Shown here: piece by piece, positions 3 to 48,400 of the stretch
Layout of the letters: each line of letters begins with the position of its first letter
How positions within the stretch are numbered: the first letter of the stretch is position 1
Source: Sedimentisphaerales bacterium
GTDB lineage: Bacteria > Planctomycetota > Phycisphaerae > Sedimentisphaerales > Anaerobacaceae
Length of the DNA: 64,000 bases
Direction of reading: 5' to 3'
Assembly (NCBI GenBank): GCA_963708075.1
Contig: OY970194.1
Span: 2,400,001 to 2,464,000, forward strand
Made by a program: the position numbers and the translations under genes
The notes under the pieces: model-generated
Databases searched by the model: none
Told to the model about the DNA's origin: nothing
What the model saw: the letters and a program-made list of their open reading frames with translations, nothing else

Positions 3-629
3 CAGCGTGTTGCGTTCGGCCTGCGTCAGGGGCTCCAGCACCACTTTCGGATCGCTGCCGCGAAGCAGCGGCACCGTGACCGCCGCCCCCAGGATAGAAG
101 AAAGGCCGCTCTCACGGAAGCCGAGAAGCGCATCTACCCACCGGGCTCCGACGCGAGTGCTGACCAGGGCGCCATTGGCGAGCAGACGGTTGAAGCCGAC
201 GTTCCCCTCGACCGTCACGGTCTCATCCGTTCCATCGTTCGAGTAGATCGCGCTGCCGCCTCCGAACAATTGCCACTCGTATCCGTGGCGCACCAGACGC
301 TGGTCGAGAGCCGTCGTATAGAGAAGCTCCTTCTGAAGCTGGTAGTCACGATTACGGGCAGTCGCGACGGCCACCGCCTCCTGCAGCGTCAGGACGCCCG
401 ATACAGGAATGCTTCGATCCGCCTGAAGGTCATGGGGTGACGGTTCGACGTCGCTGATTCTGTAGTTTGCCTTTGTGCCGAGCTCCGGGGCCCACTTCCT
501 GTCGATGATATCGTAGACCCTCTTGTCGGCATCCTGCTTGTAGTTCTTCGGACCACAGCCTGCCAGGATGGTCAAGGCGCCGAGACATACCAGACACAGC
601 CATCTACGGTAATGTGATGTGTCCATCAT
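3..629 (-). CDS. TolC-family outer membrane efflux lipoprotein (5' part; runs off the window edge)
   Basis: Not in the ORF track. Manual minus-strand translation from ATG 629 gives MMDTSHYRRWLCLVCLGALTILAGCGPKNYKQDAD...LTLQEAVAVATARNRDYQLQKE...VTVPLLRGS. It has a LAGC lipobox and an OEP-like LTL.EAV..A..RN motif, and it follows an HlyD-like gene. Confidence 0.75.
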   Translation of the reverse strand, partial: MMDTSHYRRWLCLVCLGALTILAGCGPKNYKQDADKRVYDIIDRKWAPELGTKANYRISDVEPSPHDLQADRSIPVSGVLTLQEAVAVATARNRDYQLQKELLYTTALDQRLVRHGYEWQLFGGGSAIYSNDGTDETVTVEGNVGFNRLLANGALVSTRVGARWVDALLGFRESGLSSILGAAVTVPLLRGSDPKVVLEPLTQAERNTL

Positions 630-683
630 TCTCAGGTGCCTCGGCGTTCAACACGCAAGCAAAGATGCGGCGAAAGCTCGCCG

Positions 684-1913
684 CTACAAGCCTCGGATTC
701 CCACGACCTCGCCGGGGACAAGCGACAATCGTGGCGGAATGTTGATCAGCACGGGTTGTCCCCACTGGGGAACATTCGGGTTACGCCACAGGCGTTGCGG
801 CATCAGTTCCATCGTGGGGCTGATCGACGCAATCTGCGACTCTGCGATCTGCGCCGGTGTCCTGATCTTGACCAGTTCCACCGACATACCCTCTTTGAGC
901 ATGCTCAACTGCTGCTCACTCACGTACGCCACAATTTCGGTTGGCTCCTCCAGTGCGACCGCGAGAATCGGGTCCCCGGCCCGTACTACCTCGCCGACGC
1001 GCCGCATCACCTGTTCGCCCGGCCTTTGCTGTAGCGCATCGTTTTCCTGTACCGGAATGGGGATAATGCGACCTTTGATAGGTGATTTGAGCTCGACGGC
1101 TTTCCGGGATTTCAGCGCCGTGAGTTGTTCAAGGAGTCCCTTCATCAATTCTTCCTGCACCCCGATCTCTTTGCGGATCACCTCCAGCGCCTGATCCACT
1201 GAGGGCCCTGCGATCTCTTGTCCGGCAAACTGCTCCAGCCGCACCTCCGCTTCAGCCATGTCCGCTTTCGCCTGAGCCAGCAATCGCGAGTCCTCGTCGA
1301 TCTTCTTGCTCAGGCTGGCGCACTGCACCTTGACCTTGTCCAGCTCATAGGGTGCAATCACGTCTTCCTCAAGAAGCTTCTCAAGGATCTTCCTCTCCGA
1401 CATCAGATCGCCCAGAGTCAGTTCATCGGCGGCAATCGACCCCTGCAACTGCATGACTCGCACGCGATAATTGTCCGCATCCATGGCGATCCGGTTCAGG
1501 TCTCCTGACCGGCTGATTTCCAGGTTCCGCTTCTCCGCCTGCATCGTCTCCTGGGTTGGGATCAGTTGGGCGGCCAGATGCTCGATTTCGGCCATGACAC
1601 CGGCCAACTCCCCTTTGAGCTCCGCTTCCAGCGTCTGCTCGTTATCGAGGATCGTGTCCACGACCGCCAAGGTCTGTCCGGCGATCACTGGCTCGTATAA
1701 TGCGACCGAAATGTCCTTGATGCGGCCGGTGCTGCTCGCCGCCACCTGGCGCACCTCCCCCCTCGCGATGCCCACGATTTCAAATCGGTGAGCACGCTGA
1801 CGAAGGAGCCCGACTACGCCACCGACAGCCACCAGCCAGACCATCACCGGCACTGCGTGACGCAGGTAGGAGCGTTTCTGCTCGTGACTACTTGGTGCGG
1901 CTTTTCTTCCCAT
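684..1913 (-). CDS. HlyD-family membrane fusion / periplasmic adaptor protein
   Basis: N-terminal TM helix, lipoyl half-motifs (VAASSTGRIKDISV...V.AGQTL; LKSPIKGRI...GEVVRAGDPIL) and a long coiled coil between them. Confidence 0.85.
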   Translation of the reverse strand: MGRKAAPSSHEQKRSYLRHAVPVMVWLVAVGGVVGLLRQRAHRFEIVGIARGEVRQVAASSTGRIKDISVALYEPVIAGQTLAVVDTILDNEQTLEAELKGELAGVMAEIEHLAAQLIPTQETMQAEKRNLEISRSGDLNRIAMDADNYRVRVMQLQGSIAADELTLGDLMSERKILEKLLEEDVIAPYELDKVKVQCASLSKKIDEDSRLLAQAKADMAEAEVRLEQFAGQEIAGPSVDQALEVIRKEIGVQEELMKGLLEQLTALKSRKAVELKSPIKGRIIPIPVQENDALQQRPGEQVMRRVGEVVRAGDPILAVALEEPTEIVAYVSEQQLSMLKEGMSVELVKIRTPAQIAESQIASISPTMELMPQRLWRNPNVPQWGQPVLINIPPRLSLVPGEVVGIRGL

Positions 1914-1921
1914 CGTGCGGC

Positions 1922-2617
1922 CTAGGCTTCGAGGAGCCTCTCCTGCATCGTCAGATTGATGTTCTCGATCCCTTCGACCTTCTCTAACTCGGCGACAAAC
2001 TCATTGTTCATGGCGACATTGCGTATCATGATCTGATAGGCGTATTCGGCCGGTCCGCCGAAACCGCTGTCCTGCACCGAGATCAGGCTGAAGCTCCCAC
2101 AGAACCGATGCAGAATATTGGACACCGGATGGTTTGGACCCAGTGGGCCTCGCAGGCCGAAGCGAAGGAAACCATTGTGAGGCTCATGCGAGCCAAAATC
2201 GGTGAAATGCAGGTACACGGCGATCGAGCACAGAATCAGCGTCCCCAGGATCGACGTCAGGTATCGGTGCGAGCCGCAAGCCATGCCGATCACCAACGCG
2301 CAAAAGACGAAGGCGATGTCACGCGTGTCCTTGAGCACGTTCCGGAAGCGGACGATGGCTAACGCGCCCATCAGCCCGACGGCCGTGATGATGTTGTTCC
2401 CGATCACCGACATCACCATGGAGACGATTACCGTGATCAGGATCAGCGATTGCACATAAGAGCGGGAATAGGACAATCCCGTGTGCGTAAGGTAATAAAC
2501 CCACGCAAGCACCTGCCCCAGCACAAATGCCAGCAGAAGCGAAAGAAGCACGGCCTGGGGAGTGAACATCCCGCTGCCCAGCGACGTGTCCTCCAGGACT
2601 TGCCACCATCTATCCAT
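1922..2617 (-). CDS. DUF4956 family membrane protein
   Basis: Multiple TM helices, GLMGALAIVRFRN..KD.RD signature, F...IGMACG motif and a soluble C-terminal ACT-like region. It overlaps the VTC gene by 8 nt. Confidence 0.9.
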   Translation of the reverse strand: MDRWWQVLEDTSLGSGMFTPQAVLLSLLLAFVLGQVLAWVYYLTHTGLSYSRSYVQSLILITVIVSMVMSVIGNNIITAVGLMGALAIVRFRNVLKDTRDIAFVFCALVIGMACGSHRYLTSILGTLILCSIAVYLHFTDFGSHEPHNGFLRFGLRGPLGPNHPVSNILHRFCGSFSLISVQDSGFGGPAEYAYQIMIRNVAMNNEFVAELEKVEGIENINLTMQERLLEA

Positions 2618-3518
2618 TCCACGGACTCCTCAGGGCCGGGGCACAGAAGCCAAACCGGCACGCCTGTTCGATAGATGTGGCGTACTTGGATACCGAATTC
2701 AACACCAAGCCGAAGTCCTCCACCAGGCGGCTGAGCCACAGGGGATACGTTCCCGTGAACTTGATCTCCAGGATTACGTTGTTCATTGTAACATCATTGC
2801 GCTGCCAGCCGGAACCCCCAAGTCGCACATACGGCTCGTGCGTGACCTTGTAACAGAGATCCCGGTCAAAGGTCACCCTCACCCGGTTCTGGGAAGGGCT
2901 CTCCCAGGCCTGCCTCTTATAGCGGACCAGAACCATCGGGCCGGCATGGATGCTTGCCACGTACAACTGAAACTGATTCAAGGCGGCCTCGTCGGTCGTA
3001 TAGCCTTGCGGGGGCAACGACATGCCCCGGATCAAGACCGGCACATCACCGTCCATCACGCGCGCCCGGCTTTTCATGATCACGCGATTGATCCGCCGCT
3101 TGATCTCAAAGAAACGCGGGTACTCGGGCTCATCCGTGTAGCTGCGAATCCGCAGCTTGAACCGGTTTTTCACCCCCGTCATGGTCTCCCGGCACAGCCG
3201 CAGGTCCGGAGAGTCCAAATACAGGCTGACGATCGGGTAATACCCTCCCCGTTGCAGCTTGGAGTAGCGGTCCGGCTCGAGAAACGGCCTGATATACCTT
3301 TCAATGGCCGCGGTCTCGATCTCCGTAATGAGGTATTTCATCTCATATCGGCACGCGAGCATCCGGTCAACCGTCTTCTTCGGCTGCCGGTCAGGGCGCA
3401 CCTTCGGACTGTCCTTCTGCCCCGGGGCATTGTCACAAGCCCGTCGTTCTGAGTCATTTGTCATCATACCGGCCTTCTCCGCCGCATTACCTGGCGAGGC
3501 CGGATTTCGTAATTCCAA
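2610..3518 (-). CDS. VTC domain (CYTH-like) polyphosphate polymerase domain protein
   Basis: Motifs RYEMKY, SLYLD, KLRIRSY, FEIKRR, RVTFDRDL, ILEIK and SKY. The start could be TTG 3518 or a slightly downstream ATG. Confidence 0.9.
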   Translation of the reverse strand: MELRNPASPGNAAEKAGMMTNDSERRACDNAPGQKDSPKVRPDRQPKKTVDRMLACRYEMKYLITEIETAAIERYIRPFLEPDRYSKLQRGGYYPIVSLYLDSPDLRLCRETMTGVKNRFKLRIRSYTDEPEYPRFFEIKRRINRVIMKSRARVMDGDVPVLIRGMSLPPQGYTTDEAALNQFQLYVASIHAGPMVLVRYKRQAWESPSQNRVRVTFDRDLCYKVTHEPYVRLGGSGWQRNDVTMNNVILEIKFTGTYPLWLSRLVEDFGLVLNSVSKYATSIEQACRFGFCAPALRSPWNG

Positions 3519-3647
3519 ATCCGTGACACTCCTTCATGGTCCGGCCTTGACCTCGCAAACGCAAGTGACGCCCTCCCAAGCAGTTACACGTCATCATTCC
3601 TTAACCTCGCACTGGAGATGGTCAATTCCAGCCCGAGCTTCTTATCT

Positions 3648-3677
3648 ATTTTAACACACGGACCCACTCACAGTCAA
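3648..3677 (-). promoter_or_regulatory. sigma70-like promoter of the VTC-DUF4956-HlyD-TolC operon
   Basis: Minus strand TTGACT-N18-TAAAAT with an extended -10 TG. Confidence 0.55.
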
Positions 3678-3750
3678 GAGCCTGTCACCCAGTTTCCCTT
3701 GTCATCACGCAAAGCCTGACCACGTCCGATAAACCATGATTCCGATGCAT

Positions 3751-6700
3751 CTACGGCTCCTCATGCCTGAGAGGGTCCGGCTCGTTAGCGGCCCCCGGAG
3801 AAGGAACCGCGGAATGCCAGTTGGCGGGGTCGTTGCCATACGCAGCGGAATCCGTCCGGTTCAGGGACATGCCCAAGCCGTTGGCATCCCCGGGCCACGG
3901 GTCAGTGCGCTCAGGGAAATCCCGCCCGTGCGCCCCGTCACTGTACACGACCCGATCCACACGAATCCAGTTACGCGTTCCATTTGCATCCACGTTGCCG
4001 GGCTTGCTGAGCTGGATCTTTGCCGGACCGTTGACCAGCTTGCCGGCGCCCCAGGCAAGAATCTGCACGCCCACAGGGGCCGTGTACTTCGAACTGAACA
4101 AGCCCGTGTCTTTCACCAGCAGCAGGTACTCGCCTGCTGCGAGCGTCACAGGTGGATTCTCAGGCAGCAGCAACTCAACGGATGGCTCCTCCGGATCATC
4201 CGTGAATCGCCAGGGAGCTTCTCTGACTGCGTCGTACAACGTCACAGGCTCATCGCTGATATTGAGCAGCTCCACGTACTCGGCGTCTACAGGATTCTCC
4301 GGATGGTACATGATCTCATTGATCACCACCGGCCCCACTCTCGGAGCAGCATTCTCCGCACCAGGCGTGGCCATGCTCATCGCCACGAAGTTGTATGTAC
4401 CCATGCTCTTCTCGTAGCGACCCAGGGAGACTCCCGCCTCGGAGGCATCGAATTTCTCCTGCTCGCTGTAGCCGGTCAGGACGCCTGCGGAACCGGAATG
4501 CAGATAGACCGTTTCTCCATCGGCGCTCAGGGCAAAGGGCTCATGGCTGCCCGGATCGGCCTGGCTGTTGAAGTGGCGGTTCTCATAGAACACGATGTAC
4601 TCACCGGCGGCGATACTTGCCCCGGCGGCCACCTCGTACTGGGTCAGATTGTTCGCGTCATCGCTGAGGAACCAGCCTCCGATATCAATGGGCTGATCGG
4701 TCGTATTGTGCAGCTCGATCCAATCGGGTCCGCTGTCCTGGGAGTTGGCCAGAAGCTCATTGATGACCACGGAGCCGAGCGGAGGCACCTGGCCGCTATC
4801 GTCAGTACCGGGCGAGCCGCCTGCCTTGGCGCTGGGCCGCCAGACAATCTTATCATCGTACGCATTGGGGTCGGCTGTCCTCGGGTCTCTTACGGTAAGC
4901 GAGAAACCCAGCCCGTCAGTGATATCGAACCAGTTGTCTTCGAGGCGGAAATCGTGAATGTCTGTGCCCACGGCATCGAGCAATTCGATCCGCTCTCCCG
5001 CGTTGTTCAGGTTGCCTACGTACTGGCCCACGACAGGCAGACTCGAGCCGTACCGGGCCTGGAAGGCTGTCGCGTTCCTGACCAGCAGGGAGTAGCGGCT
5101 GGGAGCCAATTCCAGGTCCGGGAAGGTGAAGTAGACGCCATTGGCGAGCTTCACCAGGTTCAGATTGATGCTCTCATCGCCGATGTTGATCAGCTCGATG
5201 AATTCGGTATTGGGATCATTCGGGTCGTCCGTCTCGACCGGGTGGTACATGATCTCGCTAATCCGCAGGTTCTCCGCGATCGGCCCGACGGAGAAGACCG
5301 CCTCGTTCAAAGCGCTCCAGGCGCCGCCGCTCAGTGCCCGGGCCTTGACCTGCACGCTCTTGTCCAGCGTCACGGGACCTGTGTACTTGATGGCGGTCGG
5401 CGAAATCCCACCGCTCGCGGCAGATGTCCCTTGCCCCCACTCCAGCGAGGCCTGGATGATGAAGTCCGAGCTTGTCGGCGAGGAATTCAAGCCATGAATG
5501 GCGAGGATGTTCTGCCCCTGCCGCAACAGGCTGATGTGCTCGTCGATCGGGAAGATCTCGGCGGCATCGCCCTCATGGTTGGCTTGAGCGGCGGAATTCC
5601 ATGCCGGTGTCCCGGTGAACGAGGCCCTCTGCACTTCGACGCCGTTGAGGTAGGCGACAAAACCGTCGTCATATTGGACCCTGAGTGACAGCGACTTGTA
5701 CGTGCTCGGGTCTGCGGCCACATCGAAGGGGATTCGTATGTAGCAGCCCGCCGCGATTCCATACATCTGCCGATTCAGATCGAGGCTGATCAGGGACTCA
5801 TACCCGAGGCTGCGCTCGTAACCGACCCCGCCGGGGCCGCCCGCCACGGTCATCCAGGTCGCATCATTGAAATCCTCACCGCCCTTCCATGCCTCTTCGA
5901 CTTCACCGGTCGGAACGAGGACGCGTTTGGTCGTGTTCTCGGCCACCAGGATCTGGCCTCCGGAGCTCCCCGCCTTCTCCGGCAGCCGCGGATCCGTGCC
6001 GTCCAGGGTGTAGTAGATGTCGTCTGACGCCTGCATTCTCAGCTCGAAGCCAACGGGGACATGCCCGCCGTGCTGATTGAAGCTCGGGGCCCATACGTCG
6101 GGATACCAACCATGGCTCCTCAACTGGTCCAGGACCACCGACGTCCGGTTCGGAAGGCCGAAGTCGCCATAGTCGTTGATGATGCGATTGACCTCGTTCT
6201 CCCAGTCCGCCTTCGTAAACGCGGTCGAGCGCTTCGCGTCGCCCCAGCGAGCGGACTCGGCGATGATGGCCATCTCGATTTGGCCGGCCCGGTCGAGCAT
6301 GCGCTGCCTCGATCTTGCGTAGGCCAGAACCCCGTTGTTGAAGAAATGCTTGTGCACGCGATCGGCCAAGCGCATGCGGAACTCCGGATGTTCGAGCAGC
6401 CTTTGCTGCAACCACTGGGGCGTGAAGTACTCGAAGCGCGCAGATCCGGATGCGTGAAAGGCCCCGTCCGATCCAGGCCCCAGCCATAGCGGTCGATCAA
6501 GGTGTGCTCGGCGTCATGCCGGAACCACTTGAAACCATCCGGATTCGCATGATTGTAGACGCTGTAGTAGTTGTTCGGCCGGTTGTTGCCGAGAAAATTG
6601 GATATAGGCCCGTCAAAATCTCCCGCGTAGAAGGTGCACAGCATGTAGTCGATCAGGTTATCCGGGTCGAGCAGCTTGGGGTACTCGGGGTTGGGCGTCC

Positions 6701-8426
6701 CATCCGGATTCAGGCCCTGGATCCGATAATACGGCTCCTCGACATTGAAGCCGGCCACAGCAGCCTGCCAGAGCAGACGGCAGGCATCCAGGGCGCCGTC
6801 CGTCGCCTCGATGGTGTAGCTGGGGTTGCCGCCTACGGTCTTTACGACGTCGTAATCCTCCTTGCCTCCCCCGAAGTAGGATTCAGCGTACGAGGCTTCC
6901 GGCCGCTCTTCCGTCTGGAACAAACCCCAGTACTGGCCATTGAGATAGAGATGATAGTAGCGACTTCGGGTGTAGGATTGGCCCATGTCCCGCTGCGTGT
7001 CACGAGAGAAGACGTCGCGGAGGAATGTGTGCCTTTCAGACCCGTCATAGGCCCAGGAGTAGTTCTGGCTGGTCCGCAGATCGATGTTTTCGAATTCGTC
7101 CACTCCCTCTTTGCCGAAGAGTGGATACTTGAGCTTTGGCGTGCCGTACTCACTTCGAAAGAACAGGCGAAACGCGTGTTTGGGATTCGAGTCGCTGCGG
7201 CTGTATCCGCCGCGAACCCGCAGTCCGGCGTCAACCTGGAATCCCTCCGTCTCATCCGGATGAATCAACTCGACGGAAACCAGCCGCTCCCACTCCTGTC
7301 CGGTCCGCTTCGCATTCACGTAGATCCCTCGTTGCGAGTCGAAGAGATTGCTCACGTCCGTCGCGAGGGAAATCGTGGGGATGGAAAGCAGTGCATCACC
7401 CATCAGGTCCTTGTACCGGGGATCGTTCACGACATCCGGGTCCATGCCGTAGTCGATCGTCTGCCCGTTGACGCTGCCGGTGGGCCATCCGGGTCCGGGG
7501 GACCCTCCCGTCGGAGACTGCTTGATCACATCGGCAACGAAGATATAGGTGCGAGTCTCTATTGGCGAGGGTTGCCAGCCGGGCTTGACCGCGACCGCAC
7601 GCAGGCAGGCGGTCTTGTTGATTCGCACCGGCTCACTGTACAAGGCAGCCATGCTACTCGGACGGGCGGCATCGGCGACATACGGCACGCTGCCGTCCGT
7701 CGTGTAGTAGATCATCGCCCCTTCCGTCTCGCAGGTGATGGCTACGAAGAACTCCCGATCATGGAAGCCGTGGTCGAAATTGAACTTCGGCTTCCGTGTA
7801 ATCCCCTCGTAGATCCGGACGTTCGGGCCGCCGGGGGTGGGGAATGTCATCAGCCACCACGAGTCGTTCCCATCCGGGAATCGGCCGTAGGAGACGTTCG
7901 CCACCTGCTGGTCAAATGTGATAGTGTCGACCAGAGTGACGCCGTCCTTGTCGAACAGCGCCAGATCCTCGCCGCCGGCATTGAGCGAGAAGTCCGCATG
8001 CAGCCCCGGGTCCGCCACATCCCTGTCGGCCCAAATCACCAGGTAGCCATGGGGTGCAATGGTCGTCTGCGCAGCATCGCTGGTGGGAATGTGCCATTTC
8101 GCGGGTTGGAGCAGATCGTCCGTCAGGTACATCCCGCCGACATCGAACGGTGCGTCCCCCCGGTTATATAACTCAAGCCAGTCGTCCGGCTCGCCTTGCG
8201 GGTCTGAGTACTTGTCGCTCGAGTTTGACGCCAGGAACTCGTTGATGACGATGGGGATAGCCCCTGCCTCCAGATTCGCGTCCACAACCGTGTAATCGGC
8301 AAAGCCGCTACCGTCGCCAAGATCCCGAGAGGATGAAGCAGCTAGCGTGGAACCGCCGATACAGAGAATCAGCGCAAGCACGCGCACGCTGTCCGGCAAC
8401 ACATTCACCTTCGTCCTCCCGTGCAA
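3751..8426 (-). CDS. Secreted CotH kinase family protein with lamin-tail (LTD) and chitobiase/Fn3-like domains; one frameshift near 6441
   Basis: ORFs 6120..8426 and 3751..6411 join if one base is restored near 6441 (...HPDL-ARFEYFTPQWLQQRL). Signal peptide, INE..A/DWIELYN LTD motifs, IYYTTDGS.P, and CotH motifs YLNGQYWGL..TEE and DFDGP...NNYY...RHDAE. Confidence 0.85.
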
Positions 8427-8694: not shown

Positions 8695-9105
8695 TCACTG
8701 GTCGGCGCTGCTCCGCTCCCCAAGAGTATGTGAATCGAAGGACAACCATGGGCGAACCGCCTCGATCGTGGCAGGACCTATGCCTGTAACCCTTCGCAGA
8801 TCTTCGGCGCGTCTGAACGCGGGCCCCTGGCCGCCCCTCTCGCTGAATTGACTGCGGTAGGAGACAATCTGCCGAGCCCGCGCTGGGCCGATTCTCGGCA
8901 GTCTGGCCAGACTTTCGGGCAGCGCATCGTTCGGATTGATCGTGTCCTCGATCGCGAAGTGAACAGGGTGTGCGGATGTATCCGCCACGCTTACAGCAAA
9001 AGTGATGCCGGTTGCCACACAAAGGCATGCAAGACAGAGGAAACCAACCGATTCGATCAGGTCGCCGGACGGCTCGCTCCTGCCGGTGAAGACGCCGGAC
9101 ATCAT
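8695..9105 (-). CDS. comEA: ComEA-like helix-hairpin-helix DNA-binding protein
   Basis: INPNDA..ESL.RLPRIGPARA..IV.YR...F....DL.RV.GIGP motif and an N-terminal TM. GGAGG RBS before ATG 9105. Confidence 0.75.
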   Translation of the reverse strand: MMSGVFTGRSEPSGDLIESVGFLCLACLCVATGITFAVSVADTSAHPVHFAIEDTINPNDALPESLARLPRIGPARARQIVSYRSQFSERGGQGPAFRRAEDLRRVTGIGPATIEAVRPWLSFDSHTLGERSSADQ

Positions 9106-9133
9106 CGGGCACCTCCCTGGGTCGCGTCCGTTC

Positions 9134-10609
9134 CTACCGCTTGAACATGGACACGTATACCCTCTTGAGCGTCTTGAATGCTTCTTTTGCCTCAAGCTGG
9201 TCAGTCAACAGGCCGCTGTACGCAATGGTGTCGTCCGGACCGTCTGCGAGGGTGCCGTAATTGACGGCTTCAACAAACGGTTTGCTCAAAGCAATCTTAT
9301 AGAAGCGATTGAGCCATTGACTTTGCCGAGTGTCATCCCATTTCTGGTGCCACACGCCGGCCACCTGGCTCTCAAATGGGCCGCTGCCGTTCTTGCTGGG
9401 GATCTCGACGTCGGTGATGTACAGCGGCTTGGCCACCACGGCAAAGCAATCGAGAATGGACGATATCTGCATCATGTCCCGCAGATGCATGCCCACTTCA
9501 TCTTTGCCGAAGCGCATCTGCAGTCCGAACGCATCGAAATTGGTCCCGCTCTGGACCACCATATCCATGTAGACAAACGGCGGAATACTGTTGGGCGTCG
9601 TGGCGTAATATTCGCCCCACGGATGGCTGACCTCAATGATTTTGACGGCCCGGCTGCCTGCCGCCTTCACACCCATACTGGCCGCACGCGTCATCTCGAG
9701 GATCTGCTCAAAATTGAAATTGAACTGGTTGTATGCGTTCAGGCCGCTGATCACGTACCATCGATGGACCACGTTGGCATAGCGGGCCACGACTTTGGAA
9801 ACGAACTGATACGCCAGTTCCCGGATCTTCTCGAAGCCAACCCCGGCCTGCAGGAGCCATTGGGGCAGGTGGTCTTCCGTGAAGCGAAGCAACGGTCCAA
9901 CGCCGATGACCACCTTCTTCCCGGCCAGCAGAGAAATGCACTGATCCACGGCGGAGAAATCCAGGTGTCCTTTTCGGGCTTCGATCTGCGCCCAGTTGAC
10001 AGGCACGGTCACCGAGGAAAAGAACTCCGTGAGTTTATCGAAATACTGAGGCTTGGCAATCAGGCGGGGATCGACCCGACAACCGAGACAGCCGCGGCCG
10101 AACCCATGATTCTTACGCCGCTTGTCAAAGAGCAGTTTCCCGTGTCGGATGGCCAGTTTCTCAGAGTATACCATGGCCCTCTTCAGGGCCTCGTCAGCCA
10201 GCCGGGATGCCTTCGCGCCGTTGTCGATGTTCTGGATCGCCTCGATAAACAGGTCCTGGGCCCCCTTCGAAATGTCCTCCATCCCCTCGACGCTATCGAA
10301 AAAGGACCAGTCTTCCCGCCGGTTGGTGATTTGCATAAGCTTGGCGCGGGTGATCTCGACGTTGAGATTATAGGGGCGTTCCCGCTCGGGCAGGCAGGTG
10401 GTGGGCAGCAGGATGCGGCCGAAACCGCTGATCGGCCACAGCAGGGCCAGGCCCGCCGTTTCTACGTTTGGCCTGATGCACTCGACGATGCCGTTGGTGG
10501 CGCCGATTCTCGCCCGGCGGATGCTGATGCCGTCCGTGCCGAACAGGTAGGCGCCGCAGGGCCTGAACTTCTCAACAAGTTCGCCATCTCTGAAGACCTG
10601 AAACTTCAC
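9134..10609 (-). CDS. GH10 (endo-1,4-beta-xylanase)-like TIM-barrel protein, probably non-catalytic
   Basis: W.QIE..KG..DFS..D, P.WL, FDAFGLQM, KPLYITD and GLL....K patterns. No signal peptide, and the catalytic Glu motifs are altered. Confidence 0.7.
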   Translation of the reverse strand: MKFQVFRDGELVEKFRPCGAYLFGTDGISIRRARIGATNGIVECIRPNVETAGLALLWPISGFGRILLPTTCLPERERPYNLNVEITRAKLMQITNRREDWSFFDSVEGMEDISKGAQDLFIEAIQNIDNGAKASRLADEALKRAMVYSEKLAIRHGKLLFDKRRKNHGFGRGCLGCRVDPRLIAKPQYFDKLTEFFSSVTVPVNWAQIEARKGHLDFSAVDQCISLLAGKKVVIGVGPLLRFTEDHLPQWLLQAGVGFEKIRELAYQFVSKVVARYANVVHRWYVISGLNAYNQFNFNFEQILEMTRAASMGVKAAGSRAVKIIEVSHPWGEYYATTPNSIPPFVYMDMVVQSGTNFDAFGLQMRFGKDEVGMHLRDMMQISSILDCFAVVAKPLYITDVEIPSKNGSGPFESQVAGVWHQKWDDTRQSQWLNRFYKIALSKPFVEAVNYGTLADGPDDTIAYSGLLTDQLEAKEAFKTLKRVYVSMFKR

Positions 10610-42497: not shown

Positions 42498-45400
42498 TCA
42501 GTTGGCTGCGCCGGGCGAGGCGGTGGCGGCTTTCCAGTTGGCCGGGTCGTTGCCGTAGGTCGCCGGGTCAATCCGGTTCAGGGATGAGCCCTGGCCGTTC
42601 GCCCCGACGGGCCACAGGTCAACGCCACCGAGGAAATCGTCCGGATGCGCACCATCGCTGTAGGTGACACGATCCACGCGAATCCAATACCGCGTCCCAT
42701 CCATATCCTGCCCCCCCGGCCTGCTGAGCTGGACCTTTTCGCTTCCATTGGCCAGATTGCCGTGGCCCCAGGCGAGGATCTTCATCCCCGCCGGGACCGT
42801 GTATTTCGTGCCGAACAGGTTCAGATCTTTCACCAGCAGCAGGTACTCGCCGGGGGCCAACGTCACGGCCGGCTTCGCGGGCAACAACAGCTCGATCCCT
42901 GGATTTTCCGGGTCATTGCTGAATCGCCAGGAGGCCTTCTCTCCTGCATCGTACAGCGTGACAGAGTCGGCACTGATATTGAGAAGTTCCACGTACTCCG
43001 CGTCGGCAGGTATGCCCGGATTGTACATGATCTCATTGATCACGACCGGCCCCACCAACGGATCGGCGTTGGCCCGACCCGGCGTGGGCGCCTCCAAGGC
43101 TACGAAATCGTAGCCGCCCGTGCTCTTATGGTGGCGGCCCAGTGAAACGCCGGGGTCGGAGGCCTCGAATTTCTGCTGTTCGCTGTAGCCGGTCAGGACT
43201 CCTTCGGAGCCCGAATGCAGGTACACGGTTTCCCCGTCACCACTGAGGCGCGAACGGATCTCTGCAGCCCGGATCATCGGGATTGCCGAAGTGCTCATTC
43301 TCACCGAATACCAGATAGCCGCCGGCGGGAATGCTCGTGCCGGCCGCGATCCGATATTTCATCAGATCGTCCGCATCGTCGCTGAGGAACCAACCGCCGA
43401 TATCGATGGCCTGGCCGGTCGTATTGTACAGCTCGATCCAGTCCGGCCCGGCGCCCTGCGAGTTGGCCAGCAGCTCATTGATCACCACGGCTCCAAGCTC
43501 AGCCACCTGGCCTTCATCGCCGAAGCCCGGCGAGCCGCCCGCATGCACGCTGGGCCGCCACGAATCTGCCTCCCCGAGTGCGTTTGGGTCTGCCGTCGGC
43601 GGGTCCCTGAGCGTGAGGGAAAAACCCGGGCCGTCGGTGACATCGAACCAGTCGTCCTCGAAGCGGAAATCGTGAATAGCCGCGCCCGTGGCATCGAGCA
43701 GTTCGAGCCGCTCGCCCGCATTATTCAGACTGCCCGCGTATTCCCCTGCCACGGGCAATCCTGCCCCGTACTTCCCACCGAACGCAACCGTGTCCTTGAC
43801 TACGAGGCAATAGCCGCCGGGAGCCAGAATGTAGCTGGGGAACGTGAAATCGACGCCATTGGCGAACTTCACCAGTTTCAGGTTGATCGTTTCGGCGCCG
43901 ACATTGGTCAGCTCGATGTACTCGGTATTCGGATCGTCGGGACTGCCTGTGTCGAGCGGGTGGTACATGATCTCGCTGATCCGCAGGCTTTGGGCCACCG
44001 GGCCAACCGCATACACCGTCTCGTTCAACGCGCTCCACCGACCATCAAAGGTCCGGGCCTTGATATGCGTGCTCTCGGTCAGTTGCACAGGGTTGCCGAA
44101 CTGGATTGCCGTCGGCGAGACGGCCCCCTGGCTGATCTCTCCCGCCACCAGCTCCACGGAGAGCAGGAAATCGGAGCTGTCAAGGGGCGTGTTGAGACCG
44201 TGGATGGCCAGCAGGTTCGTGCCCTCCCAGAGCAGACTCGCATAATCGGAGATGTCGAAGCTTGCCCACGCCATGGCGGCCTCATCCGCATTGCCACCGG
44301 AGGCGAGGGAGTTCCACTGGGGCTCGCCTGTGAAGTTCAGGCGGGCCACCTCCGCTCCGTTCAGGTAGGCCACGAAACCGTCGTCGCAGCGGACTTTCAA
44401 TATCGTGTTGGAGAACCCCGTCTTGCTCACTGTGAACGGAATGCGGATGTAGCAGCCTCCATTGATCCTGTACATCTGGCTCTGCACGTCGATGCCGATG
44501 TAATCACGGTAGCCTGTGCCCGCCTCGTAGCCGACGCCGCCGGTCCCGGCCGTCCACGAGGAATCATCGAAGAGATTCGCGTACCAGACATTGCCTTCCC
44601 CGACTTGCAGCCCACCGGCACTGACGTCGCCGACGAGGCGGAACTGGTTGGCGTTGAACGAGGTGATGTTGCCTCGCGCCGCGAACAGCTCGAGCTCGGA
44701 GCCGCCGCCCCGCTCGTAGAAGACCAGCCGCAGGTCATGTGACCCTGCCTCGGTGACATTGAAAACGGTCAGCGTATCGCCCGGTCCCCGCGGATCTGGG
44801 TAGGAGCTCGTGTACGTCTTGCCCTTCCTGGTCAGCGTCATCGAGAAGCCGTCATCGCTGTTGACGCCAAAGGTCCATTCGCCTGTCGCCGGGATCATCA
44901 CCTTGCCCGTCACGAGAACCACGAAGTCCTCGACATCGGCATCCAGGGTCGTGCCCGGGAAGGGTCGGTCGTTGTCGAAATTGCCTAGGCTGCCCGTGTT
45001 GAAGTAGTTGATAACCCTGGCCTGCTCCCTGGCCACGGCGGCCTGCTGCGTGGGATTGGCGATGACGCCTTCAGCCGCCGCAATGCTATCGACGGCCACG
45101 GTAGCCTTGTAGTACGTGACCTGGAAACCGGCCGGGATGTTGCTGAGCAGATTGCCGCCGTTGGCCACACTGGGGACCAGGACCCGCTTCGGCGCATTCT
45201 CCGCGAGCAACGTGACGATCTTGCCGTCCGTGGATTGCCACGCAGGCACGCGAGGATCGCTGCCGTCCGTGGTGTAGTACGCGCGTCCCCTGGCAACACT
45301 CATGGTGAGCAGACTGTTGGACGGGACCATCCCGCCCTGCCTCGGTGTACCGTTTATGCTGAATACCGGGACGGGCGTTGTGGGGTAAAGACCCGCATTC

Positions 45401-48400
45401 TTCAACTGGTTCTGCACGATCGCCGGACGCTGCGGCATGTACGTGCCCAGGATGTAATCCCGCATTTTACGCCAGTCGGCGAGTGTGTACGGTGTTGCAC
45501 TGGACTGATCTCCCCACCGCGCCGACTCCGCGATGATCGACAGCTCGACCTGATCCGCCAGTTTCTTGTAGCGCGCGTACGAAGGCCCGAAGGTCGCGGG
45601 CCCGTCGTTGAAGAGATGCTTCTGCGTGTGATCGCCGAAGAGCAGACAGAACTCGGAATTCTGTCGCAGGGCGGCGTAGGGAATCGCGGCGCCATCCCTC
45701 ACATTGGTCACGTTGGCGTTGAGGTCGGACCAGATGACAATCGCCCCCTCCGCATCCCAGTTGAAGAATTTGAAGCCCGTGGAATTCGGGGGCCGGCGGC
45801 AGGCGGCATAATAGTTGTGCCCCGGCCAGTCGCCCGTGCCGCCCCAGAAGTTGGAGAACATGTAGTCGATGTAATTATCGACGTCGAGCAGATCGTCATA
45901 GGCGGGGTTGCGGATCCCGTCCGGGTTGTTGCCCTGGATTCTCTGGTAGGAGGCAGGGTCGGACAATCCCGCCCGGGACCGGCTGAGCATGGCGTTCCAC
46001 GTGGTCAGATTGCCGTCGCCCCTGGCCTCGCCGCGATTGACGGCATCCCACTCTTCCTCGTCCCCTCCGAAATAGGCGGCGCAGAAGGATTCGACCGGTC
46101 GCTCCGTCAAGTTGTACAGGCCCCAGTACAGCCCGTTGAGATACAGGTGCACGAACGTCCCATGGACAGCGACCTGGCCCAGCGACAATTGGGTCCGCCG
46201 CATGAACTCATCGATGATATATTGTGTGTTGGCCCGGCCCCAGTCATTCCAGCCATCGTTGGCCCCGGCTCGCAGAATGATCATGTCGAAGCTGGTGGTC
46301 GCGTCGTCCTCCTCGAACAGCTTGAAATCCAGCTTCGTCGGGCCATAGTCACGTTTGAACAACAAGCGGAACGACTTCTTGCGGGTCAGATTGTATCCAC
46401 GGAACGCACCGCCGTAGATCCGCAGCCCCGCATCGACGTGAAAGCCCGTCGTGCCGTCGGGGTTGATCCACTCGACAGACACAGGGCGTTCCCACTGAGT
46501 GCCCTGGCCCCACGGATCCGCGTGAAGCCCCTGCGCCCGAACAGATTGTCCACGGTGCTCACGACAGACATCGTGGGCAGGGACAGCAGGGCCGGCTTGA
46601 GCTGATTCCGATACTGCGCGTTGTTCACAACATCCGGGTCCATCTCATAGTCGGCGTTGGTGGAGCCCCACAGTGCCGGGAAGCTGAGCGGATTTTTCGG
46701 CTGTTGCAGCACCTTGTCGAGGAAGATGAACGTGTGTGTCTGCACAGGACTTGACATCCAACCCGGCTTGAACGCAGCTACGCGCAAGCAGGTCGTCGTG
46801 CTTATGGTGATCGGGCCCGAGTACGTCAGGCCGCTGATTTCCGTTGGCTTTGTTCCATTCGTCGTGTACCGGATCGCGGCCCCGGGCGTATCACAGAAGA
46901 TGCTCAGCGGGAACGACGCCGAGTAGAAGCCTCGCTCGCGGCTGAGCTCGGGCGTGGCCACAAGATCGACAGCCCCGGAGACATTGGCCTGGCCGGGCGT
47001 CGGCGTGACGAAGTACTGTGGAATCCTGATCTGTCCGGAGGCGCCCAGTTCCGGCGCAGCCAGGAAGACCGAATTGGCTTTGTCATCATTGAGCCCCTGG
47101 ATCGCGAGCACATTGCGGCCATCGCGTAGCAGGCCCTTGTGCCGGGAGAGGTCGAGCACGGCCGGATCACCCATCAGCAGATCGGAACGATCACTGTCGG
47201 CTCTGGAGTCCCAGCGAGGCGTGTCCGTGAAATTCGCCCTTGCCACTTCCGTGCCGTTGAGCCAGGCCACGAAGCCATCCTCGTACCGCATTTGCAGCCG
47301 CAGCGAGTTGAAGAACGCCGTTTCTTCGGCGTCGAACTCCGCACGCACCCACACCGACGCGTTCACGCCGAGCATCCTGTCCCTCAACAGGTTGTTCGTC
47401 TGGCTCCCGAAGGTCACATTGTTGAACGCCGCGACGGTGGTCGTGCCCGTGGCGTGGGAGGTCACGCACATGCCCATGTAGGCATCCTGACCCATGGCAA
47501 TCACCTCGGTGCCCTGCTGCACCCAGTTGATCCCGTTCGGGGAACAGTAGCCGCTGAAGACGTTGCCTCGCCGAGTGATCCGGACCCAATAGGGAGGTTT
47601 GAAGGCATTGCCCTGCGCCGCGGTGGTGGCGCCGCCCACGGCCGTGCGCCGCAGGAAGGCCGTGCCGCTTCGCGGGGAGACAACCTGGGTGGCATGCCGG
47701 GAGTTCGCAGCGAGCGTCTCGCGGATCATAACCCCGGCCTTGGCCCAAGCGTCTGTATCGATCACGGCCATGACGAGCGCCGTCAACTCACCGTCGCCCC
47801 GGACGGGCATATAAAGGTAATAGAACGAATCCGCGGAACCGCCGATGTCCGCACCGTCGCCAAAGACCATGAATGTCGTCGCAGTGGGCAAGTTGTGACC
47901 ACCGGGGATGGCGACATTGCCGATATCCCGGCCCACCAACTGCGAGGTCTGCGAGAAACCCAGGCTGGCGGTCGCTGTGGGCCAGCCGTCGTCGTTGAAG
48001 CCCACGGCCGTCCAATCCCGTTCCGCATCCTCGGGAAGCGGGACATGGTAGGCCACTGTCGAGCCGGAGCTGATGAACTGCGCGGCCGACTGGCCCAGAC
48101 CGTACGAGACATCCGTCAGTTGCTCAGGGTAGCCCGGATCGTACTCGTCCGCCACGGTGCGGCCGTCGCTCTTCACCAGGGCCAGGTAGCCCCCCGCGGC
48201 GGCCAGTTGGAAATTCGTGTGCAGCTCCCCTGCCGTCCGGTCTTTGCCGGAGGCAAATACGATCAGATAGCCATTCGGATTCAGTTTCGTCCCGCTGGGA
48301 AATTGCCACTTGGTCAGGTTGCCGCTGTTATCCGTCAGGTACCACCCGCTGAGATCGAAGATTCGGTCGGTCGGATTGTACAGCTCGATCCAGTCGGACG

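Follow-up and report, generated by a model that had tools for sequence, protein, structure and literature searches.

A candidate polyphosphate export cassette built from VTC, DUF4956, HlyD and TolC and its association with CotH kinases in Sedimentisphaerales (Planctomycetota)

Introduction

Secreted kinases of the CotH family are abundant, and the surroundings in which they act should hold no ATP, a compound of the cytoplasm, which raises the question of where these enzymes find their phosphoryl donor. We address this question at a locus of a Sedimentisphaerales bacterium (Planctomycetota; assembly GCA_963708075.1, contig OY970194.1), the genome of which is a single 7.5-Mb contig that is 92.8% complete. 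The locus lies at the left end of a stretch of 64,000 nucleotides (C1:2400001-2464000), hereafter called the window, where five co-directional genes follow one another on the minus strand in the order cotH, VTC, DUF4956, HlyD and tolC. A preliminary description of the window had proposed that VTC makes polyphosphate or another phosphoryl donor, that DUF4956 takes the place of the missing inner-membrane pump of an HlyD/TolC exporter, and that the exported compound is used by the CotH kinase at the surface. The analysis reported here partly supports this interpretation. A VTC–DUF4956–HlyD–TolC machine that makes polyphosphate and sends it out for secreted CotH kinases would offer a direct answer to the donor question, and we hold this reading with a little less than even confidence. 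Beyond the preliminary description, the present work brings a test of the DUF4956 clade, a reciprocal test of the adaptor, an inspection of the acidic patch of VTC, the co-loss of unlinked cotH genes with the cassette, and a dikinase-like protein as a substitute client.

In the literature searched, no work on the HlyD/TolC form of the cassette or on the activity of a bacterial VTC protein was found, and subscription papers and bioRxiv supplements, which lay outside the search, could bear on it.

Results

The gene arrangement of the preliminary description is borne out by the coordinates of the open reading frames (ORFs) and by Pfam matches. VTC (2610..3518; PF09359, E 6e-35) overlaps DUF4956 (1922..2617; PF16316, E 3e-13) by 8 nt, DUF4956 is separated by 8 nt from the gene of an EmrA/HlyD-type periplasmic adaptor (684..1913; PF13437, E 8e-9), the latter lies 54 nt from a tolC-family lipoprotein gene (PF02321, E 7e-18), and cotH (3751..8426) precedes VTC by 232 nt, all on the minus strand. 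The window holds the 5' part of tolC (3..629, 209 codons). The DNA to its left completes the gene (C1:2398998-2400629), which ends 1,003 bases beyond the window and encodes a 543-aa OEP/TolC lipoprotein, and then carries the gene of a 365-aa secreted-looking protein, followed by leuS. No ABC or RND gene was found 3' of tolC at this locus, the DNA left of the window included, so that the absence of a pump first noted within the window extends past its edge.

VTC is the sole copy in the genome and is entirely made of the tunnel domain (302 aa, with a true start that may lie near 3362-3467). A profile of 39 VTC sequences matches yeast Vtc4 (PDB 3g3q) with an E-value of 2.5e-26, and residues R57, K61, R123, R125, K140, E251, K253 and K278 of the window protein correspond to R196, K200, R264, R266, K281, E426, K428 and K458 of Vtc4, according to a numbering counted by hand along the profile alignment. 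R264/R266/E426 and K458 are named as catalytic in Vtc4 (PMC9911596, PMC4641920). The 14 tunnel positions that we checked are all invariant in the 108-111 of 113 HlyD-type VTC sequences that cover each column, and VTC keeps the catalytic residues of Vtc4 along with most of its basic exit path. Bacterial triphosphate tunnel metalloenzymes (TTMs) are mostly hydrolases, and an acidic patch of four glutamates separates TTM hydrolases from the polymerase (PMC4641920). Of the four patch positions of VTC, two are basic (R57 and K253), a third probably is as well (K149) and one is acidic (E59), the position of Glu90 having been assigned indirectly rather than read from an alignment; the CYTH protein of the same genome, unlike VTC, retains the acidic motifs. 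The catalytic residues favour the earlier view of VTC as a polymerase, the patch is mixed with E59 kept, and the sequence leans towards a likely polyphosphate polymerase over a TTM hydrolase. The Pfam scan matched no SPX domain in any protein of the operon. Neither PPK1 nor PPK2 was matched in this genome, given its 92.8% completeness. The idea that VTC stands in for PPK1 was tried and rejected: PPK1 occurs in six of the 41 VTC-positive and five of the 20 VTC-negative relatives of the order (p 0.48), without a co-occurrence pattern like that of VTC.

DUF4956 (231 aa) is likewise the only copy in the genome. Its AlphaFold model (pLDDT 84.8) combines a five-helix membrane domain with an ACT domain, predicted to lie on the cytoplasmic side. 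Conserved charges are confined to one loop, R90-F-R92-x3-K96-D97-x-R99-D100, which the helix order of the model would place on the ACT side, where it could receive a nascent chain. A fold search with the modelled membrane domain returned nothing at Z>=8, the best matches (Z 7.3) being scattered helical bundles and MATE/MOP halves, and VTC chains were absent from the top 50. The ACT domain, for its part, matches many ACT folds, the C-terminal domains of MgtC being among them at Z 7.5-7.6; the Pfam match to MgtC (E 0.0013) is below the cut-off. A streptococcal homologue of DUF4956 has also been described as MgtC-like with an ACT domain (PMC12345266). Natural fusions were searched for as well. 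VTC–DUF4956 fusions gave one match with a single sequence and seven with a profile, all of them singletons or pairs and the best one apparently garbled by a frameshift, and they were not used; no DUF4956–HlyD fusion appeared among the matches listed.

The adaptor has an N-terminal membrane helix with an invariant W26, a long hairpin, and a beta-barrel with a conserved Pro/Trp loop, at which the protein ends, no membrane-proximal domain following the barrel. Its nearest solved relative is EmrA (E 5e-24). The partner of EmrA is a membrane-embedded transporter, and MacA and RND adaptors make use of a membrane-proximal domain; an EmrA-like adaptor that stops at the barrel therefore fits a membrane-buried partner rather than an RND or MacB pump.

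The linkage of this adaptor to DUF4956 is conserved. Within the order (61 genomes), 40 regions were fetched around 46 VTC matches, and 38 of them show VTC-DUF4956-HlyD, running on into TolC in 33 cases; the remaining two contain a different cassette devoid of HlyD. When the 80 closest genome loci are considered, HlyD stands behind DUF4956 in 79 and the other one stops at a contig end, TolC being next in 63 (counted by hand in L152, where hlyD is frameshifted), missing in 11 that have room for it and without room in five. An arrangement repeated in 38/40 regions and 79/80 loci is far beyond chance. Neighbouring pumps are rare: ABC or RND genes were detected in the flanks of 4/128 HlyD-type loci, always upstream and never downstream, with profiles built from the ABC and RND genes of this genome (MFS being outside this screen, and some loci having been fetched twice), and the sole RND gene brings its own adaptor and TolC. 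A generic adaptor taken as a control (L214) has ABC genes directly behind it.

In the reverse direction, a profile of the adaptor yielded 18 matches at E<=1e-35 in 201 genomes of the phylum (nine candidates scored per genome), 17 of which are members of DUF4956 cassettes (16 adjacent and one split by a contig end); the weakest match, at 134 bits, comes from an ordinary adaptor with ABC genes behind it. Of the 18 matches, 13 had served to build the profile, and among the five held out, four are cassette members (226-352 bits). In a quick IQ-TREE run on 76 DUF4956 proteins, all 33 HlyD-linked sequences fall in one 35-member clade (SH-aLRT 99), the two other members of which are the contig-split case and an apparent loss, and this clade has conserved residues of its own in the membrane part, the residues particular to it including F31, Q35, R118 and Y135. 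The adaptor subfamily is dedicated to DUF4956 cassettes. Atlas searches with the adaptor returned generic adaptor clusters only. At the phylum level, HlyD was found in 12 of the 60 DUF4956 loci fetched (from 66 matches), most cassettes being without it, and TolC came next in 1/12 of the phylum HlyD loci outside the order (eight downstream genes Pfam-scanned, two loci lying near contig ends). These counts make HlyD a dedicated addition to a single clade and tie the linked TolC mostly to this order. The conserved HlyD/TolC linkage expected from the preliminary description therefore holds for HlyD, not for TolC beyond the order.

Some cassettes differ in composition. Behind HlyD, L076:6194-6844 encodes a lipoprotein with a tyrosine/dual-specificity phosphatase-like domain in place of TolC. 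A second, HlyD-less type, arranged as DUF4956-CotH(840-940 aa)-VTC, occurs at L051, L077, L079, L080, L081, L085, L088 and L090; its DUF4956 belongs to a distant clade, two of its CotH have a beta-helix match, and some genomes hold both cassette types.

The tie between CotH and the cassette turned out to be stronger than first claimed, with co-gain and co-loss at the scale of whole genomes. The survey covered the genomes of the order and of the phylum, plus 14 control genomes from elsewhere. Facing one VTC and one DUF4956, this genome holds 30 ORFs with a CotH domain, some being pieces of split genes (about 28-30 scattered genes), and the 24 genomes of the genus all have CotH, with 10-27 per genome. 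Most CotH N-termini look signal-peptide-like when read by eye; a hydrophobicity proxy discriminates weakly, 20/30 CotH ORFs passing it vs. 526/1,087 long ORFs. In the order, CotH is present in 41/41 VTC-positive genomes and absent from 16/20 VTC-negative ones, the other four consisting of two genomes with one weak copy and two with many. Six families contain genomes of both states, as does even a single genus, so that unlinked cotH genes are repeatedly lost along with the cassette. In the phylum (201 genomes), 46/53 DUF4956-positive genomes have CotH and 46/53 CotH-positive genomes have DUF4956, and of the seven with CotH only, one has a divergent VTC and six gave no VTC match. Among the controls, Bacteroides thetaiotaomicron, Corynebacterium glutamicum and Methanosarcina acetivorans possess CotH, VTC and DUF4956, and Bacillus subtilis, the CotH of which works inside the mother cell, has CotH alone. 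VTC, DUF4956 and CotH probably form the ancestral core, which is also found in monoderms and in an archaeon. Separately, 40-70 CotH candidates were counted in each of G176, G225, G241 and G255, and in three of these genomes a divergent VTC and a gene weakly resembling DUF4956 are present, the two lying apart in the regions fetched.

At three loci without cotH, another protein fills the slot behind DUF4956-VTC (L086:4587-7019, L097:9316-11757 and L089:8558-11713). It combines a signal peptide, a His-swivel motif and an ATP-grasp (PPDK_N) domain related to PEP synthase, and the DUF4956 of these loci form a small clade. Such dikinase-like proteins, some of which carry EF-hands or LTD-like inserts, are likely secreted enzymes of a phosphotransferase fold, judging from their domains. 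The reliance of two unrelated secreted phosphotransferase folds on the same module speaks for the delivery of a phosphoryl donor by it. The family is present in 11/201 genomes of the phylum, ten of which have VTC (6/7 once the four genomes used to build the profile are dropped), and this genome has five such genes elsewhere (C1:998829-1000784, 893501-897040, 5676252-5679848, 1395263-1398230 and 5422647-5425868), two with an LTD-like insert. VTC or DUF4956 lie near a dikinase-like gene in 3/80 metagenome loci (2/41 when 1.5 kb or more is required on each side), which brings to six the loci where such an enzyme takes the place of CotH. At this frequency the protein was rejected as a regular operon member and is considered a partner that recurs but remains minor.

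The assembly shows cotH as two pieces, 6120-8426 and 3751-6411. It is a single ORF of ~1,558 codons, because contigs of other runs add one base at 6440: the extra base is present in contigs from three of four sequencing runs (two studies), one contig being otherwise identical. The frameshift is an assembly error, and the possibility of a pseudogene was discarded once the read-derived contigs had restored the frame. The same assembly has many single-base indels and other split genes, including 3/8 RND genes and several cotH. The product consists of a signal peptide, an LTD, an Fn3-like/CHB_HEX_C region, the CotH kinase domain (PF08757, E 7e-12) and three further LTDs. Direct phmmer searches with this domain matched no CotH structure; by way of a paralogue, two catalytic Asp columns, invariant across 11 CotH sequences, were mapped onto B. 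cereus CotH (PDB 5jd9) as the equivalents of D228 and D251.

The trio of CotH, VTC and DUF4956 has already been published as a set of accessory genes in the pel loci of Gram-positive bacteria, with no mechanism proposed (10.1101/768473, PMC12345266), and in a locus table of Clostridium perfringens, again without one (PMC2879425). In Streptococcus intermedius, deletion of either the DUF4956-like or the cotH gene alters the same phenotype (PMC12345266). Contrary to the account in PMC12345266, the trio is common outside of pel loci.

The surroundings of the cassette can be summarized as follows. A sigma70-like site in the gap between cotH and VTC (3648..3677, minus strand) is a possible internal promoter according to a motif scan; five such sites were found in the region vs. 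3.6 +/- 1.7 in shuffles, and neither promoter nor terminator counts in the region exceed those of shuffles. The 365-aa protein behind tolC (L002:5826-6923), LTD-like and kept at this place in the genus and the family, had no match in the Pfam scan; it shares homology with the N-terminal portion of one of the CotH proteins, at L037, with an LTD-like lead of 0.87 in an atlas search. Upstream of cotH lie genes for a GH10-like protein (9134-10609) and a ComEA-like helix-hairpin-helix protein (8695-9195) and, beyond them, anti-sigma/anti-anti-sigma genes. A second cotH is located inside the window near 43237-46482.

Discussion

According to the mechanism that we tentatively favour, VTC would use ATP to build polyphosphate on the cytoplasmic side of a DUF4956 oligomer, which would thread the chain across the inner membrane; in this clade, the dedicated adaptor would bind DUF4956 where other exporters have their pump and lead the chain on into TolC, and one such machine may serve as the source of phosphoryl donor for the many CotH kinases, themselves likely secreted. 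The core alone would cross a single membrane in monoderms, in archaea and in most diderms, and HlyD, with or without a linked TolC, would be a later extension in one diderm clade.

Several observations weigh against this mechanism. The membrane helices of DUF4956 have no basic residues, these being gathered in one cytoplasmic loop, and the VTC pore, unlike DUF4956, is basic (PMC9911596). In VTC, E59 is kept in 108/113 sequences, and Vtc4 lacks this glutamate. The characterised CotH of B. subtilis takes ATP as its donor (10.1101/469122), and the S. intermedius mutant deleted for the polymerase gene still aggregated, with no clear defect described for it (PMC12345266). Regarding distribution, G024 (91% complete, eight CotH) and G021 (76%, 16 CotH) have no VTC match; the six CotH-positive, VTC-negative genomes of the phylum are 86-93% complete, and an incompleteness of 7-14% could give about this number; at least three of the four CotH proteins inspected in them carry signal peptides; and the genomes surveyed are kin rather than independent, so that co-occurrence statistics overstate the association. 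TolC is absent behind HlyD in 11/74 order-level loci with room for it, besides being rare in the phylum outside the order. Lastly, Sec-type signal peptides bring CotH to the periplasm first, and a TolC duct would therefore bypass any periplasmic CotH.

The cargo might instead be ATP or a short triphosphate, with DUF4956 as a gated channel and VTC as its cytoplasmic binding or gating subunit, an arrangement that would still feed secreted kinases and that we regard as unlikely, yet worth keeping in sight. Known dikinase enzymes take the beta-phosphate of ATP; the chemistry of the alternative client, with its His-swivel and ATP-grasp domain, therefore suits ATP as well as polyphosphate. The co-occurrence of CotH at the order and phylum levels fits both cargoes equally, the B. 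subtilis enzyme uses ATP (10.1101/469122), and PPK2, which would remake ATP from polyphosphate, was not found in this genome. On the other hand, VTC retains the full catalytic set of Vtc4 and its basic exit positions, and leaking ATP to the medium through TolC would be costly.

A second alternative does without any kinase supply: cassette and CotH would make or export a phosphorylated surface polymer or its precursor by synthase-dependent secretion, or take part in MgtC-like/ACT phosphate signalling. The pel operons for exopolysaccharide in Gram-positive bacteria do include the trio (10.1101/768473), Pel levels change when it is lost (PMC12345266), and DUF4956 resembles MgtC and has an ACT domain. 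Yet a scan of 48 flanking proteins showed no polysaccharide synthase directly next to the cassette, and a shared donor accounts better both for the co-loss with dozens of unlinked CotH and for the swap with an unrelated phosphotransferase. We regard this alternative as distinctly improbable.

It is very unlikely that HlyD and TolC serve an ABC, RND or MFS pump encoded elsewhere (moving, e.g., CotH or its products) and follow DUF4956 for co-regulation only. Candidates are at hand, since the genome has 61 ABC-ATPase matches and eight RND genes, MFS partners fell outside the screen, and the closest TolC paralogue (E 4e-96) heads a TolC-adaptor-ABC-MacB-MacB operon between two cotH (C1:6523261-6541371, L223). 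However, the adaptor subfamily follows a single DUF4956 clade phylum-wide, nearly always within a few bases, lacks the membrane-proximal domain of MacA/RND adaptors, and has a distance matrix correlated with that of DUF4956 (r 0.87, as shared descent would also give).

An inward flow via TolC–HlyD–DUF4956 of phosphate compounds captured by surface kinases or scavengers, with VTC as a triphosphatase or polyphosphate degrader, is likewise very unlikely: the retention of E59 and the predominance of hydrolases among bacterial TTMs would fit it, but with Arg and Lys at the equivalents of Glu2 and Glu171, VTC is without the second metal site that hydrolases are described to have, and adaptor–TolC ducts are known as exporters.

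Compared to known systems, the cassette shares features with both the yeast VTC complex and tripartite exporters, and has the defining features of neither in full. As in the yeast complex (Vtc4/Vtc3/Vtc1; PDB 3g3q, 7ytj, 8i6v), a homologous tunnel enzyme keeps its catalytic residues, and its gene abuts that of a small multi-helix membrane protein; unlike it, there is no SPX domain, the enzyme is not fused to the membrane part and keeps one glutamate of the acidic patch, the membrane part resembles MgtC and carries an ACT domain, no Vtc1 helix bundle being recognisable in it, and the set is extended by an adaptor and TolC. With EmrAB-TolC and other tripartite exporters (RND, MacAB, type I secretion), it has in common a membrane-anchored adaptor closest to EmrA and a TolC-family channel, whereas its operon has no MFS, RND or ABC gene and its candidate inner-membrane partner is a 231-aa DUF4956 protein with an attached polymerase. 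The Gram-positive pel loci have the same three families contiguous, a secreted CotH and an MgtC-like DUF4956 with an ACT domain (10.1101/768473; PMC12345266), but the window locus has no pel genes and adds HlyD/TolC. Finally, the Bacillus spore-coat kinase (PDB 5jd9/5jda) shares with the window protein the CotH domain and both catalytic Asp columns; the latter is large, bears a signal peptide, is decorated with LTDs and has ~30 paralogues, and CotH comes without VTC or DUF4956 in B. subtilis.

Conclusions

If the polyphosphate mechanism is correct, this would be the first bacterial VTC-type polymerase and a route placing polyphosphate outside the cell; it would also give DUF4956 a function and add a fourth kind of inner-membrane partner for adaptor–TolC ducts. 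A wider generalization, which we deem rather doubtful, is that of an "extracytoplasmic power line" common to bacteria and archaea, in which polyphosphate from VTC-DUF4956 would feed the CotH and dikinase-like families, with a polymerase-driven tripartite exporter in one clade. Streptococci, clostridia and bifidobacteria also carry the core trio, in their pel biofilm loci, and offer tractable strains and mutants.

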